NCBI GenBank assembly: GCA_020633435.1
Contig: JACKDP010000002.1
Span: 567,788 to 631,787, forward strand
Direction of reading: 5' to 3'
DNA: 64,000 bases
From: Myxococcales bacterium
Lineage (GTDB): Bacteria; Myxococcota_A; Bradymonadia; UBA7976; UBA1532
Shown: in pieces, positions 38,301 through 62,019 of the stretch
Layout: the number at the start of each line of letters is the position of its first letter
Position numbering within the stretch: the first letter of the stretch is position 1
The notes under the pieces: model-generated
Told to the model about the DNA's origin: nothing
The model's input: only the letters and a program-made list of their open reading frames with translations
Database searches by the model: none
Translations under genes and position numbers: made by a program

Positions 38301-41236
38301 ATGGCCTCGGCGCCCGCGAGGGGCCAGGCCGCCAGCGCCCGGTACACGGCCGCCACGCGCGGATCGGCGGCCGGCGGTCGCAGGGCCGCGAGGGGCCGCA
38401 GCGCCCCGTCGCGGGCGGGCCAGATGGGGGCCTCGGCCAGCGCCTGCCGGGTCGGGCCGCTGATGCGCTCCGCGCGCTCCGCCACGAACGCGAGGGCCGC
38501 GCCGACGTCGCCGATGGCCTGGCCCGCCAGCTCGGGGGGCGGGCGCCCGGCCAGGTGCCGCGCCAGGTGGTCGGCCGTGAGCGCCACGATGGGCAGGCGC
38601 CCCACATGCGGCGCGCCCCGCGCCAGATCGCGGCGCAGCCAGGCCACCCCGGGCAGCAGGCCCCGCAGGCCATCTTCGGCGGGCACGAGGGCGCGGTCCG
38701 GCCCGAGGAGCGGGCGACGCTCGCCGGTGTCCGTGGGGAACACGGCGGCCGCCGCCAGCCGGTCGAGCTGGCGGCCCGACAGCTCGCCCTGGGTCTCGGC
38801 CAGGACGGCGTGCAGGGCGTCGAGCGCCGCGTCGTCGATGGGCAGGCCGTCGGCCGCGTAGAGCGCCAGCACCGCCGGCAGGTCGAGGACGGTCACCCCG
38901 AGGCGGCGCAGCAGATCCGCCTGGCTGGCCTGGATGCCGGCGTCGACGAGGGGCGGCCGCACCTCCAGGCCCCGCAGCCAGCCGCCGAGGGGGCCGGGCG
39001 CCGGCAGGAAGACGGCCTGGGGCCCCCGCACCGACCGCAGCCGCCCCCGCTCGTCGGGCACCAGCGGGGCGTCCTTGACCTGCTCGAGCTGGGCCGCGGG
39101 CCGCCCCGCCAGCCACCGCAGCACCCGACCAGCGCCGGCGCGGCTGACGATGGCCGCGGCGTCGGCCGCCAGATCGGCCAGCACGTCCTCGGCCGTGAGG
39201 CTGCCGACGCGCAGGCGCGCCCACAGGGGCCCCAGGTGCAGATCGGCGTCCAGTTCCGGGGCCAGCAGGGCCCGCCCCGGCGCGGCCAGCGCCCGCAACT
39301 CGGCGTCCGCCCTCAGGATTTCGGACGGCGCATGCAGCACGCCCGCGGCGTCGGGCAGCACCGCCAGCCCCCGCAGGGCGTCCACGGGCCAGCGCTCCCG
39401 GGCCAGGAACCGCAGGATGACGGGCATCGCGCCGGGCAGCCAGGCGGCCCCCTGGGCGGCGGTGAGGAGTGCGTCGAGGTCGGCGGGCGCCAGCGCCACC
39501 GCCCCCAGGTCCCGCGCCACCTCGGCCAGGCCCCCGGGCAGCGGCGCCACGGGGCGTCGCCCGGGCGCGGGCGCCAGCACGGCGGCGAGCGCGGCGTCGG
39601 GGACGAGCAGGGCGCCCGTCGGCGTGACCGGCTGGCCCTGGGCGTCCTGCAGCCACGGCACCTGGCGGACGGCCTCGCGAAACCCGGTCGCGACGTGCTC
39701 GAACGGCGCGGTGACGGCCTGCCGCGGCGCGACGGCCATCAGCGGGCGGGCGTCCAGGCCGGCCGCGACGCGGCGCTGGACGAGGCCGCCCAGCAGCGCC
39801 CCGGCCCGCGCCAGCGCGGCGTGGTTGGGGGCGTCGTCGCCGTCGATGCGCTCCCGATCCACGGGCACGGCGAAGCGGGCGTGGATCAAGAAGTCGTGGC
39901 CGCTCGGCTGCCGCGTCGGCAGGAACGCGAAGACGGAGGGCTCCCCGGCGGGCCAGCGCGCGGGCTGGCCTGCCGCGTCCAGGGCCACGGCCACCAGCAC
40001 CTCGTCCGCCGGGGCCCGGGGGCGCTCGGCGTGGTGGGCGGCCACCAGGAACCCCCGCCGCACCACCGGCCCGCCCTGGTCGTCGACGAGCTCCACGCGG
40101 TCGTCGCCGGTGCCCGGGCGCCGGGTCAGGCGGCGACGACCCGCGGCGTCCTCGATCTCGATGGTCTGCACGCTGCGCAGGGTGAGCAGGACGTGGGCCG
40201 GCAGCGCCCGGGCGCGGCGGGCGAGCGCCGCCACCCCCCGCGCCTCGTCGGCCGGATCGCGCAGCGGCAGGACGAGCGTCGTGCCCACGCCGCCGGGGCG
40301 GCGCTCCAGGGGCCGGGGCAGCGACACGTCGGCGATCTCGAAGGCGAAGACGTCGGAGTAGACGCGGGGCCGCTCGCAGACGGCGTAGACGGACTTGAAC
40401 CCCACGCCGAACAGGCCGATGTGGCCGGCCACCTTCGTGGTCTGGCCGATGGAGAGGACCCCCACCACGTCGCGCACGTCGAAGGGGGCCCCGTCGTGCC
40501 GGATCTCGACGGCGTCATCGGTGAACGTGACCCGCCAGGACCGGGCCCCGGCGTCGTCGGCGTTCTGCAGCAGCTCGGCCAGAAAGTGTCCGGGTTCCGT
40601 ATAGATACGCTGGGACAGCAGCTCCTCGGCCCGGGCCAGCGACAGGGAGCGGGGCTGGCTCGCGAGGACGGCGAGGACGCGGTCCCCGAAGGCCGCCCGG
40701 CGGGCGCGGAGGGCGTCGTCATCGGCCAGCGCGGCGATCCGGGCCCCGGGCAGCAGCAGCAGATCCTGGTCCGTCCCCTCCCCGGCGGCGACGCGCGCGC
40801 CGGCGGCGGCCTGGAGGTCGGCCAGGGTGGCGGGGGCGTGGCGCCCGAGCCAGCGCAGGATGACGCAGCTCTCGGCCAGGCGCTCGACGGGCTGGGCCAG
40901 GAGCGTGCGGGCCAGGAGCGCGGCGAGGGCGGCCTGGGCCTCGGCGTCGCCGGCCTGGCTGCCCGGGCCGAGGGCGCGCGCCAGCCCGGCGGCCGGGAGC
41001 GTGGCGAGGGCGTCGGCCAGGGCGCCTCGCACCGTCGGCTCCAGCACCGCCCCCGAGGCCAGCAGGCCCGCCATCAGGCGCGCGAAGGGCTCGAAGTCCG
41101 GGCCCTGGGCCGTCAGCGCCGTGAGCGTGGCGAGGCCCTGACCCGCGGCCACGGCGGCGTCGATGATCGCCGCCTGCGCGGCGAAGGGGGCCCGGGCGGC
41201 GGCGGCCCAGGCCTCGGCGGTCGGTGCGTGGGCCAT
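35321..41236 (-). CDS. giant (~1,970-aa in this frame) protein with N-terminal sacsin/NOV-type GHKL (Hsp90-like) ATPase domain and a long Ala/Leu/Arg-rich helical region; probably continuous with the transglutaminase-like segment
   Basis: Start taken at ATG 41236 (MAHAPTAEAW...). SQRIYTEPGHFLAELLQNADDAGARSWRVTF...IRHDGAPFDVRDVVGVLSIGQTTK...GLFGVGFKSVYAV is the Bergerat-fold N-box/G-box pattern seen in sacsin SRR/NOV-type GHKL ATPases. Coding-like composition runs to a Pro-rich linker at ~35300-35400, where the frame degenerates. The track ORF continues to 34730 as Arg-rich nonsense. Confidence 0.6.
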
Positions 41237-41324
41237 GGCGGAGGGAGTCGCACGGGCCGGGCCCCGGCCGCAAGATCGCGCGGTTCCTTGACGCCCACGC
41301 CCGACCACCGCACCCTCCCACGCC

Positions 41325-42020
41325 ATGGCCGAGACCCGCACCGTCCTCCCCACGCCGCACCCGAGGCTCGTCCGCGACGCCGCCGGGCAGCCCCTCCACC
41401 CGCCCGCCGACTGGAGCCTCCTGCCCCCTGGCGACGCCGCCCTCACCCGCCGCGTGCGGGCCGAGGGCGACCACTGGATCATGGAGGAGCGCCGGGGCCG
41501 CAAGGTCTTCTCCCGGGGCACCTGGGCGCCGACCGACCGCATCGAGCGCATCACCCGGATGCTGGAGCGCGAGCGCGCCCAGCCCGCCCATGGCGAGCGG
41601 CTGGCCCGGGATCGCGCCCGCCGCGACAAGGCCCAGGCCGCCTACGTCGAGGAGTTCCGCCGCGAGGTCCTGGCCTTCCTGGCCTTCGCCCCGCGGCACG
41701 CCGCCGTGGGGCTCGAGCTGGCGACGCGCATCGCCGAGCACGCGACCCCCGTGGGCAGTGGCACGGTGGCGCGCACGGCCCGCATCCCCGTGGCCGAGCG
41801 CGCCGAGGCCGCCGTCATCGCCTGGATGCGCCACCAGACCACGGCCTACGACCGCATGGTCATCCCCCGCATCAAGGGCGAGCGGCGCGAGACACGGCGG
41901 CGGCTGGCCGAGCGCTCGCGGCAGGTGCTGCAGCGCTACCGCGTCGACGCCGACCCGCCCGCCGACTGCCCCCTGCAGGCCGCCCTGGCCCGCCCGGCGC
42001 CCCCGCCCGACCCCGCCTGA
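41325..42020 (+). CDS. conserved hypothetical protein (231 aa), divergent from the giant gene
   Basis: Globular composition (WIMEERRGRKVFSRGTWAPTDRIERITRMLERE...AVIAWMRHQTTAYDRMVIPRIKGERRE). No family named with confidence. Confidence 0.5.
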   Translation: MAETRTVLPTPHPRLVRDAAGQPLHPPADWSLLPPGDAALTRRVRAEGDHWIMEERRGRKVFSRGTWAPTDRIERITRMLERERAQPAHGERLARDRARRDKAQAAYVEEFRREVLAFLAFAPRHAAVGLELATRIAEHATPVGSGTVARTARIPVAERAEAAVIAWMRHQTTAYDRMVIPRIKGERRETRRRLAERSRQVLQRYRVDADPPADCPLQAALARPAPPPDPA

Positions 42021-42129: not shown

Positions 42130-43650
42130 ATGGCCGGCGTGGTGCTGACAGAGGCGGCGGCGACCGTCTGGCGGGCCCTGGAGGCGGGGCCCCGCGAGGT
42201 GGGGAGCCTGGTGGCGAGCACCGGGCTGGATCAGAGCCGCGTGATGGTGGTGGCGACGGAGGGCGAGGCCGGGGGCTTCCTGCACGTGGTGGCCCGGCCC
42301 CGCGACGAGGTGGAGCCCGCCGAGGATCTGGCGGCGCAGCTCGCCCTGGGCCTGCCCGAGCGGCGCGCGGCCCGCCTGCTGGCCGACGCCGGCGGCGCCC
42401 TCGCCATGGCGGACTTCGTGGCGGCGGCCCGCGACGCGGACGTGGCCGTCAACGAGGTCTTCCGCTTCGGGACCGCCCGCGGCTGGGTGCAGCGCGGCAA
42501 GGGCGAGGTGGTGCTCACCGACGCCGGCCGCGCCGCCCTCGACGCCCCCGCCGCCGACGAGGCCGCGCTGGCCCAGGTGCTGGCCGGCCAGCGCTTCGCC
42601 GATGAGTGGGCGGGCGTGGACGCGGCCGAGGCCCTGCGGCTGCTGCAGGGTCGCGCCGGCCTCGCGAAGCTGCGCAAGCGCACCGAGCGCGTGCTGGCCC
42701 TCACCAACGCCGGCGCCGCCGCCCTGGCCGCCGGCGTCACCGTGAAGCGCGAGCAGAACGCCCTGAGCCAGGAGGACCTGCGCTCCGGGGCCTGGCGCGA
42801 CATCACCCTGCGCCCGTACGACGTCACGCTGCCGGCGGCCACCGTCCGCCCGGCCCGCCTGCACCCGGTCCGCCGCATCATCGAGCAGGCCCGCCAGGCG
42901 TTCCTGGAGCTCGGCTTCGAGGAGGTCGCCTCCCCGGCCGTCGAGAGCGCGTTCTGGAACTTCGACGCCCTGTTCCAGCCCCAGGACCACCCCGCCCGGG
43001 ACATGCAGGACACCTTCTACATGGCCGAGCCGGCGCGCACGACGCTGCCCGATCCGGCCATCGTGCAGGCCGTCCGCGGCGCGCACGAGGACGGCGGCGA
43101 CACCGGCTCGACGGGCTGGGGCTACACCTGGCGGCCCGAGCGCGCCGAGGCGGTGGTGCTGCGCACGCACACCACGGCGGCCACCATCCGCGCCCTCGCC
43201 CGCAAGCCGAACCCGCCCCACAAGGCCTTCTGCGTCGGGTGGACGCACCGCAACGAGACCTTGAGTTTCAAGCACTTGCCGGTGTTCCACCAGATCGACG
43301 GCATCATCATCGACGAGCACGCCAACCTGGCCACGCTGCTGGGGACGCTGGACGCGTTCTACCGGAAGATGGGCTTCTCGGGCGTGCGCTTCAAGCCGGC
43401 CTTCTACCCCTACACCGAGCCCAGCGTGGACGTGATGGTCTACATGGAGAGCCGCGGGAAGTGGATCGAGATGGGCGGCAGCGGGATCTTCCGCCCCGAG
43501 GTCACCGAGCCCCTGGGCTGCAAGCACCCCGTGCTGGCGTGGGGCCTGGGCGTCGAGCGCCTGGCCATGCTGCGCCTGGGCTTCCCGGACATCCGGGAGC
43601 TGTACCAGGGCGGCCTTGACACCGTGGAGGGGGTGCCGCTGTGCCGGTAG
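42130..43650 (+). CDS. pheS: phenylalanine--tRNA ligase alpha subunit, archaeal/eukaryotic-type (long form, 506 aa)
   Basis: Class II motifs: FQPQDHPARDMQDTFY, the motif-2 region FRPE, and motif 3 GLGVERLAMLRLGFPDIRELY. The ~200-aa N-terminal extension and overall length fit the archaeal/eukaryotic-type alpha subunit rather than the ~340-aa bacterial one. GGGAGGA RBS. Confidence 0.8.
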   Translation: MAGVVLTEAAATVWRALEAGPREVGSLVASTGLDQSRVMVVATEGEAGGFLHVVARPRDEVEPAEDLAAQLALGLPERRAARLLADAGGALAMADFVAAARDADVAVNEVFRFGTARGWVQRGKGEVVLTDAGRAALDAPAADEAALAQVLAGQRFADEWAGVDAAEALRLLQGRAGLAKLRKRTERVLALTNAGAAALAAGVTVKREQNALSQEDLRSGAWRDITLRPYDVTLPAATVRPARLHPVRRIIEQARQAFLELGFEEVASPAVESAFWNFDALFQPQDHPARDMQDTFYMAEPARTTLPDPAIVQAVRGAHEDGGDTGSTGWGYTWRPERAEAVVLRTHTTAATIRALARKPNPPHKAFCVGWTHRNETLSFKHLPVFHQIDGIIIDEHANLATLLGTLDAFYRKMGFSGVRFKPAFYPYTEPSVDVMVYMESRGKWIEMGGSGIFRPEVTEPLGCKHPVLAWGLGVERLAMLRLGFPDIRELYQGGLDTVEGVPLCR

Positions 43651-45446
43651 TCAGCATCGACGCGGCGCGGCTCAACGCGCTGCTGGCCAACAGCTACGCG
43701 CCCGAGCGGCTCTCGGACGCGCTGGAGCAGATCGGCTGCGACGTCGAAGAGGTCGTCGAGCTGGGGCGGTTCCGCTGCCCCGTCTGCGCCTCCATGGTCG
43801 AGGGCAGCCAGGGCGCCGAGACGCGCGTCTGCGGCGTCTGTGGCCACAGCCAGGAGGCCGTCTTCGAGCAGGTCGACACCATCACGGCCATCCGCCTGGA
43901 CCTGCTGGCGGCGCGCCCCGACCTCTTCGACATCGGCGGCCTGGCCCGCGCCCTCCAGGGCTACCTGGGCGAGGTGCGCGGCATGCCGCAGTACCCGACG
44001 GCGGCGTCGCCGGTGGTGGTGCGGGTGGACGCCAGCGTCGCGCGGCCCGAGAGCTTCCGGCCGCACATCCGCTGCGCCGTGGTGCAGGTGCCGCCGCTCG
44101 ACGACGTGGGCCTGGCCACCCTGATGAAGCTGCAGGAGAACCTGCACTGGGGCGTCGGCCGCGACCGCAAGCTGGCCAGCATCGGCGTCTACGACCTCGA
44201 CACGCTTGAGGGCGACATCGCCTATACCACCCTCGATCCCGACGCCGAGCCCTTCGAGCCCCTGGGCATGCCCGGCGTGACGATGAGCGGGCGGACGATC
44301 CTGGAGGAGCACCCCAAGGGCACGGCCTACGCCCACCTGCTGGCGGATCTGAAGCGCTACCCGGTGCTGCGCGACGCCGCCGGTCAGGTGCTGTCGATGC
44401 CGCCCATCATCAACAGCGAGGGCACCCGCGTCCGCGTGGGCTCGACGCGCCTCTTCGTCGACGTGACGGGCCCCTCCGAGGCGGCCGTCGTCAACAGCCT
44501 GAACATGCTGGTCTCGTCGCTCTGCGAGCTGGGCGGCCAGGTGTCGACGGTGCGGGTGATCGGCAGCGACGGCGCCGAGGTCGTCTCCCCCGACCTGACG
44601 CCCCGGAAGTACGAGGTCTCGCTCTCGCGGGCGAAGCAGTGGCTCGGCCTGCCCCTCGACGCGACGAGCCTGGTGGACTGCTTCGAGCGGATGCGGCTGG
44701 ACGTCGCGGCCCTCGACGGCGGCGATCTGTTCCAGGTCACCTGCCCCGCTTTCCGCAGTGATGTCCGGCACATGGTCGATCTCTTCGAGGATCTGGCCAT
44801 CGGCTTCGGCTACGAGAACATCGTCCCGGCCATCGTGCCGACGATGACGGTGGGGCGGCCCCGGCCGGAGGAGCAGCTCTCCCACCTCGTGCGCACGGCC
44901 CTCGTCGGCCTGGGCTACACCGAGACGATGAGCCTGCCCATGACGACGGAGGCGGACCACTTCACCCGCCTCGGCCAGCCGGTGCCCGAGCACTTCGTCC
45001 GGGTAGCCAACCCGAAGCTGCGGGCCCTCACGGTGGTGCGCTCGCACCTCATGGGCGGGGTGCTGCAGGCCCTGCACGAGAACCGCCGCCGTCCCATGCC
45101 CGTGCGCATCTTCGAGCTGGACAACTGCGTGCGCCTGGACCCGGCGGGCGAGAACGGCACCACGGAGGAGCGCCGCCTCTGCTTCGCCGACATCGGGCCC
45201 GACGCGGGCTACGCCTCGGTGCGCGCGCGGCTGGACGCCCTGCTCTGGGAGCTCGGCCTGACGGCCACGTTCACCGCCGTCGAGCACCCCGCCTTCGTGC
45301 CCGGCCGCGTGGCCCGCTTCACCACCGGCACCCCGGTGGAGGGCCTCATCGGCGAGGTGGCCCCCGGCGTCCTCGACGCCTTCGGCATCGACCTCCCCGT
45401 CGGCCTCGTGGAGTGCCTGATCGCCCCCCTCGCCTGGGACCTTTGA
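43641..45446 (+). CDS. pheT: phenylalanine--tRNA ligase beta subunit, archaeal/eukaryotic-type (601 aa)
   Basis: The GTG start overlaps the pheS stop by 10 nt. MPVVSIDAARLNAL... resembles an archaeal PheT N-terminus. B3/B4 and B5 regions are present with no bacterial-type N-terminal tRNA-binding or C-terminal anticodon-binding domains. ~600 aa versus ~800 aa for bacterial PheT. Confidence 0.8.
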   Translation: MPVVSIDAARLNALLANSYAPERLSDALEQIGCDVEEVVELGRFRCPVCASMVEGSQGAETRVCGVCGHSQEAVFEQVDTITAIRLDLLAARPDLFDIGGLARALQGYLGEVRGMPQYPTAASPVVVRVDASVARPESFRPHIRCAVVQVPPLDDVGLATLMKLQENLHWGVGRDRKLASIGVYDLDTLEGDIAYTTLDPDAEPFEPLGMPGVTMSGRTILEEHPKGTAYAHLLADLKRYPVLRDAAGQVLSMPPIINSEGTRVRVGSTRLFVDVTGPSEAAVVNSLNMLVSSLCELGGQVSTVRVIGSDGAEVVSPDLTPRKYEVSLSRAKQWLGLPLDATSLVDCFERMRLDVAALDGGDLFQVTCPAFRSDVRHMVDLFEDLAIGFGYENIVPAIVPTMTVGRPRPEEQLSHLVRTALVGLGYTETMSLPMTTEADHFTRLGQPVPEHFVRVANPKLRALTVVRSHLMGGVLQALHENRRRPMPVRIFELDNCVRLDPAGENGTTEERRLCFADIGPDAGYASVRARLDALLWELGLTATFTAVEHPAFVPGRVARFTTGTPVEGLIGEVAPGVLDAFGIDLPVGLVECLIAPLAWDL

Positions 45447-52155: not shown

Positions 52156-53403
52156 TCAACCCCTTGGTCTCGTTCGTAGATCACTGAGAGAAGCCTGCGC
52201 CTTGGGCCGGAAGCCCTCCAGCCGATCGAGGACGCGGCGCGCGCTCATGACGCCCTTGTAGACGTAGAGCTGGCCGGGCAGGTCGTCCTCCAGCGCCGCC
52301 TCGCTGACCCGCAGGCGCTCGGTCACGGCGAAGAGGACGTTCTCGCGCAGGCCGGCGCGCACCAGATCGACGCGCTTCCAGACGGCGTCGCGGCTCCAGA
52401 ACCCCAGCACCTCGAGGTAGGCCCGGGTGCCGTCGGGGTGGCTGAACACCAGGTCGGGCACGCAGAGGCCCACGCCCGGCAACGCCAGCAGCCGCGTCGA
52501 GCGCCGCACGCGCCAGTCGGTCTCCAGGGCGCCGAACCGCTGCACCAGGTCGGCGACGTCGTCGGGCAGCGGCAGCTCGGCGCCGGGGCCGCCGTCGCGC
52601 TCCCCCTTGAGGAGGAAGCGCACCCGCTCGGGCGGCTTGCCGAACAGCAGATCCGCCTCCAGGGCCCAGCGCGCGCAGGCCCGGATGGGCTCCAGCATCA
52701 TCGCCAGCCGCAGGCCGTACTTCCGCGTCGCCGAGAAGAGGCTCTGGGGGCCGTCGAGGGTGACGCGGTAGCCGCCGTCCCGGGCCTCGATGGTGTAGAG
52801 AAGCCGGTGGAACTTCAGGGAACGAAAGAGGTTTCGCCAGATGGCGGCGTCCTCTTCCTCGATGTCCACGACCACGCGCACGGCCAGCAGCAGGGCGGCC
52901 CGCTCCTGCTCGCGCTCGTACAGCGCCAGCAAGGCCTCGGGCGTCGTGGCCTCGAACTCGACCAGCAGGTGGGCGTCCTTCAGGTCGGCGAAGAGGGCGC
53001 CCTCCAGCGCCTTCACCTCCAGGCCCAGGGCCGCCGCGGCGTCGGCGATCACCGCGCCCCGATCGAAGGCCTGCAGGTGGTCGAGGGCCCGCCGGGCCGC
53101 CGTCGCGCGGGTGAAGACCTCGGCCCGCAGCGCCACCGGGGGCTGCCCCACGTCCATCTCGAAGGTGCAGCGGTCCGTCACGAGCTTCTGCAGCCCGGCG
53201 AAGACGCGCTGATCGGCGTGGCTCACGGGGACGTCGCCGCAGGCCGCCTTGAAGACCTCCCGGCTCTCGCCCACGCTGTTGGCGGCCGCCTGCAGCAGGC
53301 CCTCGGCGGCCTCCAGCAGCCGCGGCCGCGCCGCCGCCGGGATGGGCCGGACCTCGACGACGTCCTTCGTGCGCTTCCAGCGCACCAGATCAGCGGTAAG
53401 CAC
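52156..53403 (-). CDS. DUF790 / Bax1-like nuclease (partner of the XPB-type helicase)
   Basis: A 415-aa protein whose start overlaps the helicase stop by 14 nt and whose stop is 1 nt from the xthA start. The family assignment rests on size, composition and the obligatory pairing with the XPB-like helicase. The conserved acidic nuclease region is ...VVVDIEEEDAA.... Confidence 0.6.
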   Translation of the reverse strand: MLTADLVRWKRTKDVVEVRPIPAAARPRLLEAAEGLLQAAANSVGESREVFKAACGDVPVSHADQRVFAGLQKLVTDRCTFEMDVGQPPVALRAEVFTRATAARRALDHLQAFDRGAVIADAAAALGLEVKALEGALFADLKDAHLLVEFEATTPEALLALYEREQERAALLLAVRVVVDIEEEDAAIWRNLFRSLKFHRLLYTIEARDGGYRVTLDGPQSLFSATRKYGLRLAMMLEPIRACARWALEADLLFGKPPERVRFLLKGERDGGPGAELPLPDDVADLVQRFGALETDWRVRRSTRLLALPGVGLCVPDLVFSHPDGTRAYLEVLGFWSRDAVWKRVDLVRAGLRENVLFAVTERLRVSEAALEDDLPGQLYVYKGVMSARRVLDRLEGFRPKAQASLSDLRTRPRG

Positions 53404-54751
53404 TGTGCTCCCGGCGCCGCTGGCTGGTGTACGTCTCGGCCGTCTCCTCGGCGACGAGCTCGTAGAGGATGGCCTGCTTGTCGCCCTGCTTGCGCAGGAT
53501 GCGGCCGAGGCGCTGGACGTGCTCGCGCACCGAGCCGGAGCCCGAGATGACGATGGCGACGTTGGCCGACGGCACGTCGACGCCCTCGTTGAGCACCTTG
53601 GACGTCGCGACGGCGCCGTAGCGGCCCTCGGCGAAGCCGGCCAGGATCTCGCTGCGCTCCACCACCGGCGTCTGGTGGGTGATGACGGGGATGAGGAAGC
53701 GCCGGGCGACCTGGTAGGCCGTGTTGTTGTTCTGGGTGAAGAGCAGCACGCGATCCTGGCGGTGGCGGTGCAGCAGGTGCTCGACGAAGCGCAGCTTCGA
53801 GGGGGCGGCCGAGGCCAGGGCCTTCTGCCGCTGCCAGGCGAGGAGCGCGCGGCGGCCCTCCGCCGATCGGGCGGCGCGCTGCAGGAACTGCTGCCAGGCC
53901 CCCTGCTGGGAGAACCGGATGCCTTGCGAGGCCACGAAGGCCCGGTAGATGCCGCGCTCGTGCTCGTAGGCCTGCCGCTCGGCGTCCGTCAGCGGCACCG
54001 TGAGCGTCTCCGTCGTGTACTCGGCCAGGTAGTCGCCCGCCAGCTCCACCACGTCGCGCTGGTAGACGGTGGGGCCGATGAGGCGCTCCAGCTCGACGTG
54101 GCGGCCGTCCGCGCGCTCGGGGGTGGCCGAGAGGCCCAGCCGGTACGGGGCGAGGCACATCTCGGCGCCGAGGGCGTACGACTCGCCCGGCAGGTGGTGG
54201 CACTCGTCGAACACCACGAAACCAAAGCGGTTTCCCAGGTGCTCCATCTGCGCCCAGGCGGAGTCGTAGGTGATGACGGTGAGGGGCTGGACGTCGTGGC
54301 TGCCGCCGCCGACCACGCCGACGGGCTGCGCGAAGGCGCTGCCGAGCAGGTCGTACCACTGCCGCACCAGGTCGAGCGTCGGGGCGACGACCAGCGTCGA
54401 TCGGCGGATGGCGTCGATGGCCAGCATGGCCACCCAGCTCTTGCCGGCCCCGGTGGGCAGGGCCACCACCCCGCGGCCGCGGTTCTTCTGCCAGGCAGCC
54501 AGGGCCTCGGTCTGGAAGGGCCGCGGGGGCCGCTGGATGGCCAGGCCGGCGTCCAGCTCGGTGTACCGGCGGGCCTCGTCCGTCCAGGCGAGCTTGCGGC
54601 GCACGAGCCCCATCACCACCTCGGCGTAGGCCTGGGCGGGGGTGCGCCAGCAGCGCGTCCGATCGTCGAAGCGCGCCACCTCGGGCAGGATGGCCGGGTC
54701 CTCGACGTCGTGGACTTCGAGGGTGCCGGCGTTGAAGACGAGCCGGGTCAT
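53390..54751 (-). CDS. XPB/ERCC3-like SF2 DNA helicase (DEAD/DEAH box)
   Basis: Motif I ALPTGAGKSWVA, motif II VVFDECHH, motif III GLSATP, motif VI QRLGRILR. The N-terminal damage-recognition-like region resembles XPB. Confidence 0.75.
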   Translation of the reverse strand: MTRLVFNAGTLEVHDVEDPAILPEVARFDDRTRCWRTPAQAYAEVVMGLVRRKLAWTDEARRYTELDAGLAIQRPPRPFQTEALAAWQKNRGRGVVALPTGAGKSWVAMLAIDAIRRSTLVVAPTLDLVRQWYDLLGSAFAQPVGVVGGGSHDVQPLTVITYDSAWAQMEHLGNRFGFVVFDECHHLPGESYALGAEMCLAPYRLGLSATPERADGRHVELERLIGPTVYQRDVVELAGDYLAEYTTETLTVPLTDAERQAYEHERGIYRAFVASQGIRFSQQGAWQQFLQRAARSAEGRRALLAWQRQKALASAAPSKLRFVEHLLHRHRQDRVLLFTQNNNTAYQVARRFLIPVITHQTPVVERSEILAGFAEGRYGAVATSKVLNEGVDVPSANVAIVISGSGSVREHVQRLGRILRKQGDKQAILYELVAEETAETYTSQRRREHSAYR

Positions 54752-54891
54752 CCCGGGCTTTCTACCTTATCCGGCGCGCGCCCGCGAGGGCGCTTCGGCC
54801 CATGCGGCCGCCCCCCGGGCGAAAACCGCTGGCCACCCTCCGCGTCGTTGGGCATCATGCGCGACCTTGGCCACGTCTCTGGGGGACGCCC

Positions 54892-55872
54892 GTGATCCGA
54901 CGCGCCGCGCTGCTGGCGCTGCTCGCCGCCTCGTCGGCGGGGGCGACGACGCCGGACCGGGGGTTCGCCCCCTACGGGGTCATCGACGGCTACGTCGAGG
55001 CCCTGCGCGTGATCATGGTGACGGTCCGCGACAGCCTGTCGATGGAGACGCTCATCCGTCACCACCCGCCGGCGGCCGTGGGGCGCGTCCAGGGGCGGCT
55101 GCTCTTCGGCGTCCAGATGCAGGACAGCGAGGGCGTCTGGCTGCGCGATCGCGACGCGGCCTGGGCGGTGCCCGAGACCATCGACGCCCTGGTGGCGGCC
55201 GCCGCGGAGGTCCGCCGCCTCCACCCCGGCGGCATGGAGCTCTCCATCGGCGACATCTCGCGCCGCACGGGGGGCCGCTTCCCGCCCCACCGCACCCACC
55301 AGTCCGGGCGCGACGCCGACATGCGCTACTACCTGGTGGACGTGCAGCCCGGCGACCGCGAGCACCACTACACCGGCGTCGACAACGTCGATCTGCCCCG
55401 CCAGTGGACGTTCATCAAGACGCTCATCGACCGCGGTCAGGCCGAGGTCATCTACATGGACTACCGGCACCAGGAGCGGCTGTACAAGTACGCCCGCGCC
55501 CAGGGCATGACCCCCGAGCAGCTCACCCCGATCTTCTCGTACCCGCGGGGCAAGCGCGTCATGTCGGCCGTGATCCAGCACATGAAGAACCACTTCAACC
55601 ACCTGCATGTGCGGGTGTTCGCGCCGAAGTCCCAGCTCTTCGGCCTGCTGTGGACGCCGGCCGAGGCCTTCGCCCTGCAGCAGCAGGTCGACCTGGCGAC
55701 GCTCGGGCACTTCGACTACGTGATCCGGGACGGCGAGACCCTGGGCAAGATCGCCCGCAACCACAAGGTGGAGCTGGCCGACCTGATGGCCTGGAACGGC
55801 CTCGGCCCGCGCTCGAAGCTGCGCCCTGGCATGGTCCTCAAGATCCGCCAGAAAATGCCCAGCCGGCCGTAG
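54892..55872 (+). CDS. penicillin-insensitive murein endopeptidase (MepA-like) with C-terminal LysM domain
   Basis: Signal peptide from the GTG at 54892 (MIRRAALLALLAASSAGA). HQSGRDADMRY...HFNHLHVRVF matches the MepA zinc-ligand pattern. The C-terminus DYVIRDGETLGKIARNHKVELADLMAWNGL is LysM. Confidence 0.65.
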   Translation: MIRRAALLALLAASSAGATTPDRGFAPYGVIDGYVEALRVIMVTVRDSLSMETLIRHHPPAAVGRVQGRLLFGVQMQDSEGVWLRDRDAAWAVPETIDALVAAAAEVRRLHPGGMELSIGDISRRTGGRFPPHRTHQSGRDADMRYYLVDVQPGDREHHYTGVDNVDLPRQWTFIKTLIDRGQAEVIYMDYRHQERLYKYARAQGMTPEQLTPIFSYPRGKRVMSAVIQHMKNHFNHLHVRVFAPKSQLFGLLWTPAEAFALQQQVDLATLGHFDYVIRDGETLGKIARNHKVELADLMAWNGLGPRSKLRPGMVLKIRQKMPSRP

Positions 55873-55935
55873 GCCCCTCCCGGCTTCTGTGCTACTGTCC
55901 GGGCCGCGGGGTTCTGCCACGTGGGCGTTGGACTT

Positions 55936-56009
55936 CAAACATTTGTCTAGCCTGGTCAAGACATTCGACTCGCATTCGAAGAACGCCGGTTCAAATCCGG
56001 CATGTACGA
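55936..56009 (+). tRNA. tRNA-like element (74 nt, anticodon CGC, Ala-type) with imperfect acceptor stem; possible pseudo-tRNA or att-site remnant
   Basis: Manual fold: D-stem gtct/agac with an agcctGGtca loop, a 5-bp anticodon stem ttcga/tcgaa with loop cTCGCat (U33, A37), a 4-nt variable loop, and a perfect T-arm gccgg-TTCAAAT-ccggc. The acceptor caaacat/atgtacg has two adjacent mismatches (2:71, 3:70). It is AT-rich relative to the genome and lacks G3:U70. Confidence 0.35.
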
Positions 56010-56065
56010 TCGGTCCGCCGCCGGGTGGGCCCCGCGCTTCACTCCCTCTCCCAGCCTGAGGCTCC

Positions 56066-57820
56066 ATGGACATCCTGGTCATCAACTGCGGCAGCTCGAG
56101 CCTGAAGGTCGACGTCGTGGACGCGGCCACCGGCGCGCGCCGCCACCAGGCCCGCGCTGAGCGCCTGGAGGCCGGCGAGCTGGCCACGGCCCTCGCGCGC
56201 GTCCTCGGCGGTCTGCCCCTCGAGGGCGTCGCCGCCGTCGGCCACCGCGTCGTCCATGGCGGCGAGCGCTTCACGCACCCGACGCGCATCGACGACGACG
56301 TGGAGGCCGCCATCGGCGCGCTGGTGCCCCTGGCGCCGCTGCACAACCCCGCGAATCTCCAGGGGATCCAGACGGCTCGCCGCCTGCTCCCGGGCGTGCC
56401 CCATGTGGCCGTCTTCGACACCGCGTTCCACCACACGCTGCCCACCCGCGCCCGCACGTATGCCCTGCCGGCCGACGTCGCGGCCCGCCACGGGGTGCGC
56501 CGCTACGGCTTCCACGGCCAGAGCCACCGGTTCGTGGCCGCCCGCGCCGCCGCCCACCTCGGCGAGGACGTCGCGAGCCTGCGGCTGATCACCTGCCACC
56601 TGGGCAACGGGGCCTCGGTCTGCGCCGTCGAGAACGGCCGGTCCGTCGACACCAGCATGGGCATGACGCCCCTGGAGGGCCTGGTGATGGGCACCCGGGC
56701 GGGCGATCTGGACGCCGGCCTGCTGCTCACCCTGCTGCGGGAGGAGGGCCTGGACGCCGACGGCCTGGACCGCCTGCTCAACCGCGAGAGCGGGCTCAAG
56801 GGGCTGTCGGGCGTCGGCAACGACATGCGCGACATCGAGGAGCGGGCGGCCGACGGCGACGAGGCGTGCCGCCTGGCCCTCCACGTCTTCTGCCACCGCC
56901 TGCGCAAGTACATCGGGGCCTACGCCGCGGTCATGGGCGGCGTGGACGCCATCGTCTTCACAGCCGGCATCGGCGAGAACAGCGCCCTGGTGCGCCACCG
57001 CGCGGCCCAGCGCCTCCAGTACCTCGGCGCCCGGCTCGACGAGGACCGAAACCGCGACGCCCGGGTGTCGGCGACGTCCCCCGTGGCCGAGATCTCCGAG
57101 CCTGGCAGCCGCGTGAAGCTGCTGGTGGTGGCCACCGACGAGGCCCACGCCATCGCCGCCGACGTGCGGGATCTGGTGCAGGCCCAGGACGCCGTCGAGG
57201 GCCAGCTCGACATCCCCATCGCCGTCTCGGCCCGCCACATCCACCTGTCCCCCGAGGCGGTGGAGGTGCTCTTCGGCCCCGGCCACACCCTCACGCCGCT
57301 CAAGGAGCTCAGCCAGCCGGGGCAGTTCGCCTGCGCCGAGCAGCTCACGGTGATCGGCCCCCGCCGCCAGATCGAGGGGGTGCGCGTGCTGGGCCCCGCC
57401 CGGGGCAAGTGCCAGGTCGAGATCTCGCGCACCGACGAGTTCTTCCTGGGCATCGACGCCCCGGTCCGGCGCTCCGGCGACGTGGCCGCCTCCCCCGGGA
57501 TCACCCTCGAGGGGCCCGCTGGCCGCCTCACGCTCACCGAGGGCGTCATCTGCGCCTGGCGGCACATCCACATGACCCCGGAGGACGCGGCGCGCTTCGG
57601 CGTGGCCGACCGGGACATCGTGGAGGTGGCCATCGACAGCCAGGATCGCGACCTGATCTTCGGGGACGTGATGGTGCGCGTCTCGCCCGCCTACCGGCTG
57701 GAGATGCACATCGACACCGACGAGGCCAACGCGGCCGAGATCGGCCGGGACTTCAAGGGCGTGCTGGTGGACACGGGGCGCACGGCCCACCTGCGCCGCC
57801 GCGAGCCCCGCGCCACCTGA
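56066..57820 (+). CDS. ackA: acetate kinase fused to a C-terminal PduL-type phosphotransacylase domain
   Basis: The N-terminal ~395 aa carry MDILVINCGSSSLK, HRVVHGG, VFDTAFH, GFHGQSH, ITCHLGNGASV and TAGIGENS, all acetate-kinase motifs. The C-terminal ~190 aa carry two RHIH motifs (VSARHIHLSPE...; ICAWRHIHMTPED) and DTDEANA, typical of PduL. Confidence 0.8.
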   Translation: MDILVINCGSSSLKVDVVDAATGARRHQARAERLEAGELATALARVLGGLPLEGVAAVGHRVVHGGERFTHPTRIDDDVEAAIGALVPLAPLHNPANLQGIQTARRLLPGVPHVAVFDTAFHHTLPTRARTYALPADVAARHGVRRYGFHGQSHRFVAARAAAHLGEDVASLRLITCHLGNGASVCAVENGRSVDTSMGMTPLEGLVMGTRAGDLDAGLLLTLLREEGLDADGLDRLLNRESGLKGLSGVGNDMRDIEERAADGDEACRLALHVFCHRLRKYIGAYAAVMGGVDAIVFTAGIGENSALVRHRAAQRLQYLGARLDEDRNRDARVSATSPVAEISEPGSRVKLLVVATDEAHAIAADVRDLVQAQDAVEGQLDIPIAVSARHIHLSPEAVEVLFGPGHTLTPLKELSQPGQFACAEQLTVIGPRRQIEGVRVLGPARGKCQVEISRTDEFFLGIDAPVRRSGDVAASPGITLEGPAGRLTLTEGVICAWRHIHMTPEDAARFGVADRDIVEVAIDSQDRDLIFGDVMVRVSPAYRLEMHIDTDEANAAEIGRDFKGVLVDTGRTAHLRRREPRAT

Positions 57821-57830
57821 CCCGCAGGCG

Positions 57831-58298
57831 CTACTTGTCGGTGCCGACCCAGCCGGTGCCCGACACGGCCGTCCCGGGCACGAACGAGAGGGGCGCGGTG
57901 TCGGTGGGCGTGGGCAGGAGCGGGCCCGTCGTCGTGTAGGTGGTCTGGTACATGTACCACTGCGCCGTCTTGGCGCTGGCGTCCACGTAGACGTGCCCGA
58001 CGCGGGTGCTCTGGTACCAGATCTGATAGCTCGTGCCGCTGCCGGACGGGCTGATGCTGGTGGCCGAGCCCAGGAACTCCTGCGCCCGCGTCTTGAGGGT
58101 GGTGCCGCTGACCGGGGAGGTGGTGGTGCCTCCCATGTCCCAGCTCCCGGTGGGCCAGCCGCTGGCCCACGTCCACTTGTCGTACCAGACGCCCGCCTCC
58201 TTGCGGACGGTGAAGTTCCCGGTCGGGCTGCTGATGGTCGGACCGGTCTTGAAGTCCATGTCCGGCGGGACTTCCTCGACGATGGGCTGGTTCTTCAC
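57831..58298 (-). CDS. hypothetical small protein (155 aa), Trp/Tyr/Thr/Gly-rich, no signal peptide
   Basis: GTG at 58298 with AGAGGAG 6 nt upstream gives MKNQPIVEEVPPDMDFKTGPTISSPTGNFTVRKEAGVWYDKWTWASGWPTGSWDMGG...YQIWYQSTRVGHVYVDASAKTAQWYMYQTTYTTTG.... The rest of track ORF 57831..60749 is antisense of the kinase gene. Confidence 0.45.
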   Translation of the reverse strand: MKNQPIVEEVPPDMDFKTGPTISSPTGNFTVRKEAGVWYDKWTWASGWPTGSWDMGGTTTSPVSGTTLKTRAQEFLGSATSISPSGSGTSYQIWYQSTRVGHVYVDASAKTAQWYMYQTTYTTTGPLLPTPTDTAPLSFVPGTAVSGTGWVGTDK

Positions 58299-58376
58299 GC
58301 GGGCTCCTCTCTGCCTGCCACGGGGGTGGCACTCGGGGGATGGCGGGTGCCACCGACAGGTGTACCATCCCAGGCG

Positions 58377-60698
58377 ATGACACGCGAAACCGACGACCGT
58401 GGGAGTGGAATCGGGCGGGCCGTGACGCTGCCCGAACGCCGGGTGGAGGGGGCGCCCGTCCTCGATCCGCGCTACGCCGACATGGGGGTCATCGGCCAGG
58501 GCGGCATGGGCGAGGTGCGACGCGTCTGGGATCGCCACCTGGACCGCCCCGTCGCCATGAAGCTCATGCGGCTCGACCAGGTGGCCGCCGAGGAGCAGCG
58601 CGCGCGGTTCCTGGCCGAGGCCCGCCTCACCGCCGGCCTCCAGCACCCTGGCATCATCGCCGTCCACGACCTGGGCGAGCTGGCCGATGGCCGCGTCTGG
58701 TTCGCCATGCGGGAGGTGCGCGGGCGCGATCTGGCCGAGCTCATGCGCCAGGATCGGGTGCCGTTCCGGCGCCGCATCGAGATCTTCGCCCGGGTTTGCA
58801 GCATCGTCGCCTACGCCCATGAGCGCGGCATCGTGCACCGGGATCTCAAGCCCGAGAACGTGATGGTGGGCGAGTTCGGCGAAGTGCATGTGGTGGACTG
58901 GGGCATCGCGGTGGCCCTCGCCGACCGGCCCAGCCAGCAGATCGTCGGCACGCCCGCCTACATGTCCCCCGAGCAGGCGCGGGGCGGCGTGCTCACCCCC
59001 GCCAGCGACGTCTACGCCCTCGGCGTGATGCTGCGGGAGACGCTCACCGGCCTGCTGCCGCCCAACGGCACCGTCACGGCCCTGCTGCGGCAGGTGGCCG
59101 TGGGGCCGCCGCCCCCGGTGACGGGCGTCGCCGCCGACCGGGCCGAGCTCGCCACCATCGCCGAGCGCGCCATGGCCCCCCTCGCCGCCGACCGCTTCGC
59201 CAACGCCCTCGCCCTCGGCCGCGCCGTGGAGGGGTGGCTGGACGGGACGCAGCAGACCGAGCGGGCCCGCGGCCTCACCACCGAGGCCGTGGCCGAGCTG
59301 GGCACCCTCGGCGCCCTCCGACAGCAGGCCGAGATGCTCCGCGCAGAGGCGCTCGACCTGCTCTCGGGCCTGGACCCCCACGCCGCCGACGCCGAGAAGC
59401 GCGGCGCCTGGCAGCTCGAGGACGACGCCGCCACCCTCGACCGGGAGGCCGCCGGCGCCGAGGCGCGCTTCCTCCAGCGCCTCCAGGCGGCGCTGACGCT
59501 CAGCCCCGACCTGGCGGAGTGCCACGATCTGCTGGCCGACCACCACCGCGAGCAGGCCGAGCGCGCCCGCGGCCGCCGTGACGGCGACGCCGCCGCCCTG
59601 CACCGCCTGCTCGTCCAGACCCATGACCGCAGCGGCCGTCATGTGGCGTGGCTCGCCCGCCGGGGCTACCTGTCCCTGACCGTCCAGACCCCCGAGGCCC
59701 GCATCAGCGTGCACCGCCACCGCACGCACGGCCGTCGCAAGCACCTGGAGTTCAAAGGTTTTCTCCCCTCGCCCGCCCGCCGGGAGCTGCTCGCGGCGGG
59801 GACGTACACGCTCGCCATCCAGGCCCCCGGCCATGACGAGCTGCGGCTCCTGCTGGTGATCGAGGCGGGCCAGGACTGCGATCGCCGCCGCCCGGGCTCC
59901 CTGCACGCCGATCCCGTCCACCTGCCGCCAGCGGGCACGCTGACCCCGGACGTCGTGCTGGTGCCGGCGGGCTGGTTCATCGCCGGGGGCGATCCGGCCG
60001 CCACCGACGGCCTGCCCCGGCGGCGGCTCTGGCTCGACGCCTTCATCATCGAGCGCTGCCCGGTGACGCTGCGCCAGTACGCCACCTTCCTGAACGCGGT
60101 GGCGGCGACCGGCGAGGACGTCGCGCCGTGGCTCCCCCAGGATCGCCACGGCCCCCGCTTCATCACCCTGGGCGAAGCCGGCTACGCCCCCGCCCCGGGC
60201 GACGAGGACCTGCCGGTGGCCCTCATCACCTGGTACGCCGCCCAGCGCTACGCCGCCTGGCGGGTCGCCGAGACGGGCCAGCCCTGGCGCCTGCCCCACG
60301 ACCTGGAGTGGGAGAAGGCCGCCCGGGGGGTCGACGGCCGCAGCTGGCCCTGGGGCGAGCACGCCGAGCCGACGTGGGCCCAGGTCGCCGGCTCCTCCAG
60401 CGAGCCGCCCGGGCCCGCCTCGGTGTTCGCCGGCGCGGTGGACGTCTCGCCGGTGGGGGCGCGGGGCATGGTCGGCAACGTGCGCGACTGGTGCGCCAAC
60501 CCCTATGACCGCCGGGGACCGCCCGAGGGGGACTGCATCGATCCCCTCGTCGATCCGGGCGGGGAGCTGCGCTTCATCCGCGGCGGCAACTGGGGCGCCT
60601 CGCTGGTGCAGTGCCGGCCCGCCGGTCGCTACGCGGCGCCCCCGGACAGCCGCTACCTGGCGGTGGGCTTCCGCCTCGTCCGCTCCTGGCCGGGGTAA
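58377..60698 (+). CDS. Ser/Thr protein kinase fused to C-terminal FGE-sulfatase (SUMF1-like) domain
   Basis: Kinase motifs: GQGGMGEV, AMK, HRDLKPEN, DWG, TPAYMSPE. The C-terminal ITWYAAQRYAAWRV...RLPHDLEWEKAARG...GNVRDWCAN...RGGNWG matches the formylglycine-generating-enzyme fold. Confidence 0.8.
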   Translation: MTRETDDRGSGIGRAVTLPERRVEGAPVLDPRYADMGVIGQGGMGEVRRVWDRHLDRPVAMKLMRLDQVAAEEQRARFLAEARLTAGLQHPGIIAVHDLGELADGRVWFAMREVRGRDLAELMRQDRVPFRRRIEIFARVCSIVAYAHERGIVHRDLKPENVMVGEFGEVHVVDWGIAVALADRPSQQIVGTPAYMSPEQARGGVLTPASDVYALGVMLRETLTGLLPPNGTVTALLRQVAVGPPPPVTGVAADRAELATIAERAMAPLAADRFANALALGRAVEGWLDGTQQTERARGLTTEAVAELGTLGALRQQAEMLRAEALDLLSGLDPHAADAEKRGAWQLEDDAATLDREAAGAEARFLQRLQAALTLSPDLAECHDLLADHHREQAERARGRRDGDAAALHRLLVQTHDRSGRHVAWLARRGYLSLTVQTPEARISVHRHRTHGRRKHLEFKGFLPSPARRELLAAGTYTLAIQAPGHDELRLLLVIEAGQDCDRRRPGSLHADPVHLPPAGTLTPDVVLVPAGWFIAGGDPAATDGLPRRRLWLDAFIIERCPVTLRQYATFLNAVAATGEDVAPWLPQDRHGPRFITLGEAGYAPAPGDEDLPVALITWYAAQRYAAWRVAETGQPWRLPHDLEWEKAARGVDGRSWPWGEHAEPTWAQVAGSSSEPPGPASVFAGAVDVSPVGARGMVGNVRDWCANPYDRRGPPEGDCIDPLVDPGGELRFIRGGNWGASLVQCRPAGRYAAPPDSRYLAVGFRLVRSWPG

Positions 60699-60747
60699 CG
60701 TCTCGCCGCACGCCGCGTAGGCCGCCGCGTCGATCCCGGAGGACGCC

Positions 60748-62019
60748 ATGGACCGCCGCCTGTTCCTGCGCCGCCTGCTGGCGGCCAGCTCCGCGCTCTA
60801 CCTCGGCTGCGGCGAGGGCGGCCCCGGCGATCACGGGGGGGCCGACGCCGGCCCCGACGCCGAGGGGCTCGCGGGCTTCGACGACGCCCAGGGCTTCGAC
60901 GACGCCCAGGGCTTCGCCGACGCGGGCCCCCTCCCCGACGCCGGCCTGGGCTGCCCCGGCCTCTTCGACGACGCCTCGTTCGAGGCCGTCGTGCCGTTCA
61001 CCGGCGAGCGCGACCTGCAGTTCCACACGCTGGTGAACCCCGGCTGGGACGGCCGCCTCTACACCGACCTCGCGCTGCTCGACGCCGACGACCTCATCAC
61101 GCCCACCGCCTGCTTCTACGTGCGCACCCGCTTCCCCGACCGCCTGGACCTGGCCGCTCGCCTGCCCTGGCGCATCACGGTCGATGGCCTCGTCACCGCC
61201 CCGACGAGCCTCGCCCTCGACGACCTGCTCCCCCTCGCGCGCCCCATGGGCACCCACGTCATGGAGTGCAGCGGCAACAGCCGCGGCGCCCACTTCGGCC
61301 TGATGAGCGCGGCGAGCTTCACCGGCGTCCCCCTGCGCGACGTCCTCGACGCCGTGCCCCGCCGCCCTGAAGCCACCTTCGTCGAGCTGACCGGCTTCGA
61401 CGATCACAGCGTGCCCTCGGCCAACAACCACTCCACCCCGGGCGCCTCGTGGATCTTCCGCCTGGACCAGCTCGACCGCGCCTTCCTGGCCACCGGCATG
61501 AACGGCGAGCCCCTGCCCCTCGACCACGGCTTCCCGGTGCGCCTGCTGGTGCCCGGCTGGTACGGGTGCACCTGCATCAAGTGGCTGGAACGCTTGACGT
61601 TTCACGACGACGCCGTGCCCGCGTCGTCCCAGATGATCGAGTTCGCGAGCCGGACGCACCAGGACGGGACGCCCGCCCTCGCCCGCGACTTCCGGCCGGC
61701 GGCGATGCACCAGGCCGCCCTGCCGGTGCGGGTGGAGCGGTGGCGGACGGCCAGCGGCCCCGTCTTCCGGGTGGTCGGGGTGCTCTGGGGCGGCAGCCGG
61801 CCGACGGACGCGCTGACCATCCGGTTCGGGGCCGACGAGCCCTTCGTGCCCGTGGCGACCTGCCCGCCGATGGTCGGGAACGAGACGTGGACGCTCTTCG
61901 AGCACCGCTGGGCGCCGGCGGCCCCGGGGGACTACGTGATCCGCTGCGCCATCGACGATCCCGGCGTGCCGACGCAGCGGCTCGACGCGGGCTACTACGA
62001 CCGGACGCTCACCGTCTGA
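60748..62019 (+). CDS. Tat-exported lipoprotein, molybdopterin-dependent oxidoreductase (sulfite oxidase family)
   Basis: MDRRLFLRRLLAASSALYLGCG is a twin-arginine signal plus lipobox. The Moco-binding motifs HVMECSGNSRG and FPVRLLVPGWYGCTCIKWLERL are present. Confidence 0.75.
   Translation: MDRRLFLRRLLAASSALYLGCGEGGPGDHGGADAGPDAEGLAGFDDAQGFDDAQGFADAGPLPDAGLGCPGLFDDASFEAVVPFTGERDLQFHTLVNPGWDGRLYTDLALLDADDLITPTACFYVRTRFPDRLDLAARLPWRITVDGLVTAPTSLALDDLLPLARPMGTHVMECSGNSRGAHFGLMSAASFTGVPLRDVLDAVPRRPEATFVELTGFDDHSVPSANNHSTPGASWIFRLDQLDRAFLATGMNGEPLPLDHGFPVRLLVPGWYGCTCIKWLERLTFHDDAVPASSQMIEFASRTHQDGTPALARDFRPAAMHQAALPVRVERWRTASGPVFRVVGVLWGGSRPTDALTIRFGADEPFVPVATCPPMVGNETWTLFEHRWAPAAPGDYVIRCAIDDPGVPTQRLDAGYYDRTLTV

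Follow-up and report, generated by a model that had tools for sequence, protein, structure and literature searches.

Does a single gene in a myxobacterial genome encode both steps between acetyl-CoA and acetate, and if so, what would its product do for the cell? We addressed this question in a stretch of 64,000 nucleotides (referred to below as the window) from contig JACKDP010000002.1 of the Myxococcales bacterium assembly GCA_020633435.1. An open reading frame (ORF) on its forward strand joins an acetate kinase (Ack) domain to a PduL-type phosphotransacylase (PTAC) domain. We propose, with a probability of roughly 0.8, that the product is a cytosolic, microcompartment-independent bifunctional enzyme that has PduL in place of Pta and catalyzes acetyl-CoA + Pi + ADP ↔ acetate + CoA + ATP. 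The gene and its parts are as follows.

56066..57820, + strand: the whole ackA-pduL fusion gene, a lone ORF of 584 codons plus stop, with both Pfam domains, a GC content at third codon positions (GC3) of 0.98, and a product identical to MCB9546046.1
56058..56061, + strand: Shine-Dalgarno-like GAGG, 4 nt 5' of the ATG, overlapping the in-frame TGA that bounds the ORF (direct reading)
56066..57187, + strand: acetate kinase (ASKHA) domain, residues 1-374, in a short-hairpin form (PF00871, TIGR00016, residue conservation, Foldseek)
57188..57211, + strand: interdomain junction, residues 375-382 (QDAVEGQL), which is short and likely to be flexible (low-confidence stretch of the structural model)
57212..57817, + strand: PduL/PTAC phosphotransacylase domain, residues 383-584 (PF06130, NF011652, 5cuo, residue conservation)
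57233..57244, + strand: first RHIH, R390-H393, equivalent to the Zn1 ligands His48/His50 of R. palustris PduL (alignment to 5CUO)
57560..57571, + strand: second RHIH, R499-H502, equivalent to the Zn2 ligands His157/His159 of R. palustris PduL (alignment to 5CUO)

Reading the sequence directly, we found an in-frame TGA (56057-56059) two codons upstream of the ATG at 56066. Thus, an N-terminal extension is impossible and MDILVINCGSSSLK is the true start, and this N terminus agrees with the canonical Ack N terminus. The GC contents at the three codon positions of the ORF are 0.77/0.48/0.98, and the surrounding window is 74% GC. With a GC3 of 0.98, the ORF is native and coding from end to end. A scan of 55700-58500 for sigma-70 promoters and terminators revealed neither a promoter-like site nor any other signal that bears on the fusion gene. 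In the NCBI database, the identical protein MCB9546046.1 is named "acetate/propionate family kinase [Myxococcales bacterium]."

To the N-terminal domain, the Pfam model Acetate_kinase (PF00871) matched with an E value of 1.9e-132 and 442 bits (cutoff, 22), and the NCBIfam ackA model TIGR00016 scored 417 bits against a cutoff of 293. The propionate kinase equivalog NF009045 (TdcD/PduW) was not reached (381 bits; cutoff, 580). The ASKHA motifs of the fusion protein lie at N7..K14, D118, H178-S184, and T299-N305. We take the catalytic and substrate-site residues of the M. thermophila enzyme to be Asn7, Arg91, Asp148, His180, Asn211, Arg241, Glu384, and Gly331/Ile332/Asn335, among others. When we checked 20 such positions in HMMER alignments to 1G99 and 2IIR, all 20 were kept in the window protein (N7, S10, S12, K14, R61, V63, L92, H93, D118, F149, H150, H178, N181, P202, R211, R255, G301, I302, N305, and E359). 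In an alignment of 80 homologs with 66 to 73% identity to the fusion protein, 17 of the 20 are invariant and the others (V63, L92, and I302) are at least 90% conserved. The acyl-pocket residues V63, L92, F149, and P202 are the same as in M. thermophila acetate kinase, and the domain as a whole is 48% identical to the AckA proteins of T. maritima and mycobacteria. We built an AlphaFold2 model on the 80-homolog alignment and compared it with the PDB using Foldseek. The Ack half has the two-domain ASKHA fold and superimposes on mycobacterial AckA 4IJN with a template modeling score (TMt) of 0.92 and a root mean square deviation (rmsd) of 1.9 to 2.1 Å. The sequence thus predicts acetate (acyl) kinase activity for the N-terminal domain.

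The N-terminal hairpin region of the Ack domain (residues 25-55) has 31 amino acids (aa) here, compared with 60 in the canonical form and 47 to 54 in the majority of close relatives. Such a short region could be the sign of a degenerate kinase, a possibility that we rejected. The region is modeled with a per-residue confidence (pLDDT) of 86 to 94, and crystallized mycobacterial AckA proteins are equally long (TMt, 0.92). The short form is also common to several fused lineages, which we counted against decay.

The C-terminal domain matched PTAC (PF06130) over residues 384-559, covering profile positions 1-175 of 176, with an E value of 2.4e-76 and 256 bits. Its best NCBIfam name is phosphate propanoyltransferase (NF011652; 258 bits; cutoff, 209), and the model for Gram-positive EutD (NF040837) was not reached (235 bits; cutoff, 315). 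The domain aligned to R. palustris PduL, 5cuo, with an E value of 3e-44 and 42% identity, and Foldseek matched this half of the model to 5CUO (TMt, 0.93 to 0.94; rmsd, 2.0 Å), with the double beta-barrel PduL fold. We then mapped the active site by using this alignment together with the residue list of PMC4784909. All 18 metal-ligand and substrate-contact residues are present. The Zn1 ligands are H391, H393, and E452 (His48, His50, and Glu109 of R. palustris PduL), and the Zn2 ligands are H500, H502, and H548 (His157, His159, and His204). R446 and S470 correspond to the phosphate contacts Arg103 and Ser127. The CoA contacts S388, K413, R440, L442, and N555 are kept, as are the other conserved residues Q417, Q420, Q450, and R538. 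The acyl pocket is formed by A497 together with S388, the equivalents of Ala154/Ser45. Across the 80-homolog alignment, every one of these PduL-site residues is either invariant or conserved in 90% or more of the sequences. On these grounds, the C-terminal domain is a predicted phosphotransacylase.

The C-terminal helix of Ack (359-374) leads through an 8-residue linker into the PduL domain. The whole-protein model has a mean pLDDT of 87.4 and a predicted TM score (pTM) of 0.65. Confidence drops only at the junction (mean pLDDT of 58 for the 371-380 block; below 50 at 376-378), in a moderate-confidence loop at about 201-210 (block mean, 52), and in the tail at 581-584 (below 50). Residues 367 to 386 cross the junction, and this 20-aa length is kept in 68 of the 80 close homologs and in the majority of distant ones. 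Pairwise identities of the Ack halves and the PduL halves are correlated (Pearson coefficient, 0.82; 2,775 pairs). This correlation and the near-constant junction length argue that inheritance and constraint act on the two halves jointly. None of the Foldseek matches in the PDB was a solved chain spanning both domains. A first-pass annotation of this locus had described a complete AckA with all ASKHA motifs, fused in frame to a PduL-type region with two RHIH motifs and a DTDEANA motif. Our analysis bears this out, with the motifs at residues 390-393, 499-502, and 550-556. The junction, which that annotation had put near residue 395, lies instead at about 375-382.

A frameshift or stop hidden near the junction had been raised as something to check against orthologs, and an assembly artifact, a frameshift, or a pseudogene joining two neighboring genes would explain the ORF without any fusion protein. 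The gene comes from a metagenome-assembled genome (MAG), and frameshifts do occur in a few orthologs from MAGs; both facts speak for such an origin. Against it, the frame is continuous with a GC3 of 0.98, the junction length is conserved, and the same architecture is found in isolate genomes. We compared 81 loci, the window included. In 75 of them, a single ORF of 560 aa or more encodes Ack and PduL together. Of the other six, two are cut off at contig ends (L042 and L048), three have a frameshift within a domain (L025, L055, and L080), and one has an in-frame stop inside Ack (L067). A split of Ack and PduL at the junction was seen in none of the 81 loci, and orthologs have neither a stop nor a start there; the frameshifts and the stop always sit within domains. 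Moreover, in a collection of 5.8 billion proteins, the best 120 matches all carry both Pfam domains on 580 to 630 aa. We concluded that the artifact explanation, to which we give next to no probability, is refuted.

The fusion had also been thought uncommon, which our searches contradict. In a set with one genome per GTDB species, at least 568 genomes from eight or more phyla encode a relative of the fusion, a figure that is a lower bound. Among the best 80 of these, from which we describe the taxon spread, the hosts include Myxococcota (Plesiocystis pacifica SIR-1 and Haliangium), Bacteroidota (Neolewinella and Lewinella isolates), Gammaproteobacteria (Granulosicoccus and Spongiibacteraceae), Verrucomicrobiota, Planctomycetota, Acidobacteriota, and Binatia, among others. 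A library of representatives at 50% identity contains 2,831 members of the PduL family at an E value of 1e-3 or less. Of the 150 nearest to the window's PduL domain, about 23 are full-length Ack-PduL proteins or versions of these with a cyclic nucleotide (cNMP)-binding domain, and many others correspond to C-terminal pieces of proteins of these two kinds.

The longer versions are three-domain proteins of about 775 aa with the order cNMP_binding, Acetate_kinase, and PTAC. We found them at related loci (L057-L066, L068, and L070-L077; for example, at 7500-9821 of L070), in MAGs of Verrucomicrobiota, Binatia, Fibrobacterota, and Desulfobacteraceae. Their Ack-PduL core is homologous to the window protein at about 50% identity and has the same domain order and, likewise, a junction segment of constant length (25 aa). 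They differ in their canonical long Ack hairpin and in the extra N-terminal cyclic-nucleotide-binding domain. Their genes are clustered with those for L-serine dehydratase, pyruvate formate-lyase (PFL), PFL-activase, an Asp-Al_Ex permease, and a DcaP porin. This cluster is a module leading from serine to pyruvate, acetyl-CoA, and acetate plus ATP, and the added domain suggests cyclic-nucleotide control of substrate-level phosphorylation. We found no literature on the three-domain protein. The window protein has neither the cNMP-binding domain, the long hairpin, nor the serine dehydratase/PFL cluster of these relatives. A 573-aa member of the representative library (P0217) has the reversed order, with PTAC at 4-178 followed by Acetate_kinase at 246-559. 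The existence of this reversed fusion argues that the coupling of the two enzymes has been selected for more than once. Other PduL fusions among the nearest representatives join the domain to Flavoprotein (PduL-Flavoprotein; P0173 and P0181), to ComFB (ComFB-PduL; P0198, P0242, and P0274), and to Cob_adeno_trans (Cob_adeno_trans-PduL; P0232).

According to our model, the PduL domain, with a di-zinc site made of the two RHxH motifs, Glu452, and His548, would convert acetyl-CoA and Pi to acetyl phosphate and CoA, and the Ack domain would convert acetyl phosphate and ADP to acetate and ATP. Because either step can run backward, the same protein could also activate acetate to acetyl-CoA, and the sequence does not reveal which direction prevails in the cell. 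The Ack pocket, the propionate kinase score below its cutoff, and the PFL context in relatives suggest a preference for acetyl over propionyl substrates. It is plausible that acetyl phosphate is handed over between the sites through the short linker of constant length. The first-pass annotation had held that the fusion implies such channeling. We hypothesize it as consistent with the near-constant short junction; the sequence does not imply it.

Several points weigh against this proposal. The window copy lacks metabolically informative neighbors, so that neither substrate nor direction is constrained locally. The pTM of 0.65 gives no confident interdomain geometry, which leaves channeling without structural support from the model. 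The PduL pocket residues S388/A497 are the same as in PduL proteins that prefer propionyl-CoA, and the window protein may therefore use propionyl-CoA. Finally, our literature search found no enzymology of any Ack-PduL member.

The same enzyme might run mainly in reverse, for acetate assimilation or overflow balancing, in what is probably an aerobic myxobacterium. We regard this as possible, though doubtful. Consistently with it, both reactions are reversible, and Pta-Ack is reversed in Methanosarcina (PMC4784909). The window also has no fermentative neighbors. Many hosts of the two-domain form belong to taxa that we take to be aerobic heterotrophs (Plesiocystis, Haliangium, Neolewinella, and Granulosicoccus), and we counted this in favor of the reverse direction. 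However, no direction is fixed by the sequence, and the sole informative context, the PFL/serine dehydratase cluster of one subclade, favors the catabolic one. Alternatively, the protein might be a PduL/PduW-like pair specific for propionyl-CoA or another short acyl-CoA, making propionate and ATP from odd- or branched-chain catabolism. The NCBIfam name of the C-terminal domain, the retention of the PduL pocket Ser45/Ala154 as S388/A497, and the NCBI name "acetate/propionate family kinase" all point that way. In contrast, the Ack pocket is that of a bona fide acetate kinase, and NF009045 scores well short of its cutoff, as noted above. By offset arithmetic, V63 corresponds to Ala88 of Salmonella TdcD, of which the A88V and A88G mutants were crystallized with propionate, a correspondence that we also count against this alternative. 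Neither the window nor the 80 related loci yielded pdu or bacterial microcompartment (BMC) genes, and the PFL-containing cluster of relatives leads to acetyl-CoA. We consider a propionyl-specific pair quite improbable.

The BMC question was approached in two ways. Searches by tblastn with PduA and EutN gave no shell protein match in any of the 80 related loci or in the window itself, and none of the 30 window proteins scanned with Pfam had a BMC domain (PF00936/PF03319). Among the window proteins scanned, including twenty beyond the adjacent genes, there was also no pta, acs, phosphoketolase, pyruvate:ferredoxin oxidoreductase, or BMC gene. We then clustered the ORFs of the 80 loci and the window all against all. 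No neighbor was universally conserved, synteny was specific to subclades, and the top clusters were antisense shadow ORFs.

Fusions of PduL (PF06130) to acetate kinase that lack encapsulation peptides were described by Erbilgin, Sutter, and Kerfeld (2016, PLoS Biol; PMC4784909), who proposed that such fusions replace Pta and channel the intermediate. That paper's one paragraph is all that we found in the literature on the biochemistry of the fusion. The window protein is an ordinary member of this architecture, which is already described, widespread, and in databases. It has the same domain pair, no encapsulation peptide, and no essential difference from the proteins of that study, and the window copy has the short Ack hairpin form (31 aa).

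Compared with the PduL proteins of microcompartments (Salmonella PduL and the R. palustris protein 5CUO), the window protein has the same fold, both RHxH motifs, the equivalents of Glu109 and His204, and all CoA and phosphate contacts. It differs in lacking an N-terminal encapsulation peptide, the place of which is taken by the Ack domain in an ORF that cannot extend upstream. Its gene also lies outside any pdu, eut, or grm locus, with no shell genes in the window or the 80 loci. Stand-alone AckA proteins (1G99, 2IIR, and 4IJN) share with it the ASKHA fold, 43 to 49% identity, the catalytic residues, and the acetate pocket. In length and N-terminal topology, its Ack domain is nearest the mycobacterial enzymes of about 375 aa, and it adds a C-terminal PduL of about 210 aa after the 8-residue linker. 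The classical Pta-AckA pair carries out the same two reactions with the same acetyl phosphate intermediate on two proteins, with a Pta of the PF01515 family. The fusion, in contrast, has a phosphotransacylase of the nonhomologous PduL type and both activities on one polypeptide. The ADP-forming acetyl-CoA synthetase (ACD; EC 6.2.1.13) catalyzes the same net reaction in a single enzyme and is a functional analog. It is unrelated to Ack-PduL in sequence and fold and works via an enzyme-bound acyl phosphate and a phosphohistidine, not via acetyl phosphate between two sites.

The genes around the fusion in the window are functionally unrelated to it.

53390-54751, - strand: XPB-like helicase
54802-55872, + strand: LysM/M74 murein endopeptidase
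55936-56009, + strand: tRNA-like gene (Rfam tRNA)
57834-58238, - strand: small convergent gene without a Pfam match
about 58377-60698, + strand: Ser/Thr kinase with an FGE-sulfatase domain
60721-62019, + strand: molybdopterin oxidoreductase

The tRNA-like gene lies 56 nt upstream of the ackA-pduL start and, at 46.7 bits, is the sole match to the Rfam tRNA model within the window. Its GC content is 49%, against 74% for the genome, and it has mismatches at acceptor-stem pairs 2:71 and 3:70. Its anticodon is CGC (Ala), and the G3:U70 pair, which alanyl-tRNA synthetase requires, is absent. We found no tRNA at the matching position upstream of the fusion gene in 25 relatives scanned and no match to an exact 33-mer of the gene in JGI metagenomes. 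This gene probably represents either a pseudo-tRNA or a tRNA acquired from a foreign source. ARAGORN also called a tRNA-Pro(CGG) of 90 nt at 1696-1785 (- strand) and a tRNA-Val(CAC) of 85 nt at 29342-29426 (- strand). Both are below the Rfam tRNA gathering score and are probably false positives in GC-rich sequence.

The convergent gene at 57834-58238, the stop codon of which is 10 nt from that of the fusion, has a GC3 of 0.99 and is thus coding. Its product of about 135 aa is rich in Thr, Ser, Gly, and Trp. The next ORF formally spans 57993-60698 (+ strand) and encodes a Ser/Thr protein kinase with a C-terminal FGE-sulfatase (formylglycine-generating-enzyme-like) domain. Its start is more likely the Met codon at about 58377, because the first 128 or so codons have a GC3 of only 0.52. 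Farther away, an ORF of 2,303 aa at 34733-41641 (- strand) has as its lone Pfam match one Sacsin-type domain (E value, 5e-10), and it overlaps an opposite-strand DUF2293 ORF at 41292-42017 (+ strand). At 43620-45443 (+ strand) is a PheRS beta-subunit-like protein of 608 aa with B1, B3_4, B5, and CLM domains. Bacterial PheT is usually about 800 aa long, and 608 aa is nearer the archaeal and eukaryotic length.

As a discovery, the fusion matters little, being published, widespread, and in databases. It matters more for annotation and for the question of channeling. MCB9546046.1 and its homologs P0006, P0037, P0053, P0088, and P0115 are named publicly as "acetate kinase" or "acetate/propionate family kinase" only. 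Such kinase-only names could make MAG reconstructions in Myxococcota, Bacteroidota, Verrucomicrobiota, and other groups miss the Pta-equivalent step and score the route from acetyl-CoA to acetate as incomplete. The channeling hypothesis of 2016 would be easy to address with a recombinant protein such as the one described here. A bolder version, which we think unlikely, is that the fusion is a sealed two-site machine that passes acetyl phosphate from site to site, behaves like an ADP-forming acetyl-CoA synthetase, and forms a third widespread route that replaces Pta-AckA in the host lineages. This version draws on the 568 or more host species, on both domain orders, and on the cyclic-nucleotide-gated variant. 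The cellular acetyl phosphate pool drives nonenzymatic protein acetylation and the phosphorylation of response regulators. If the bolder version is true, the flux between acetyl-CoA and acetate would be kept apart from that pool.

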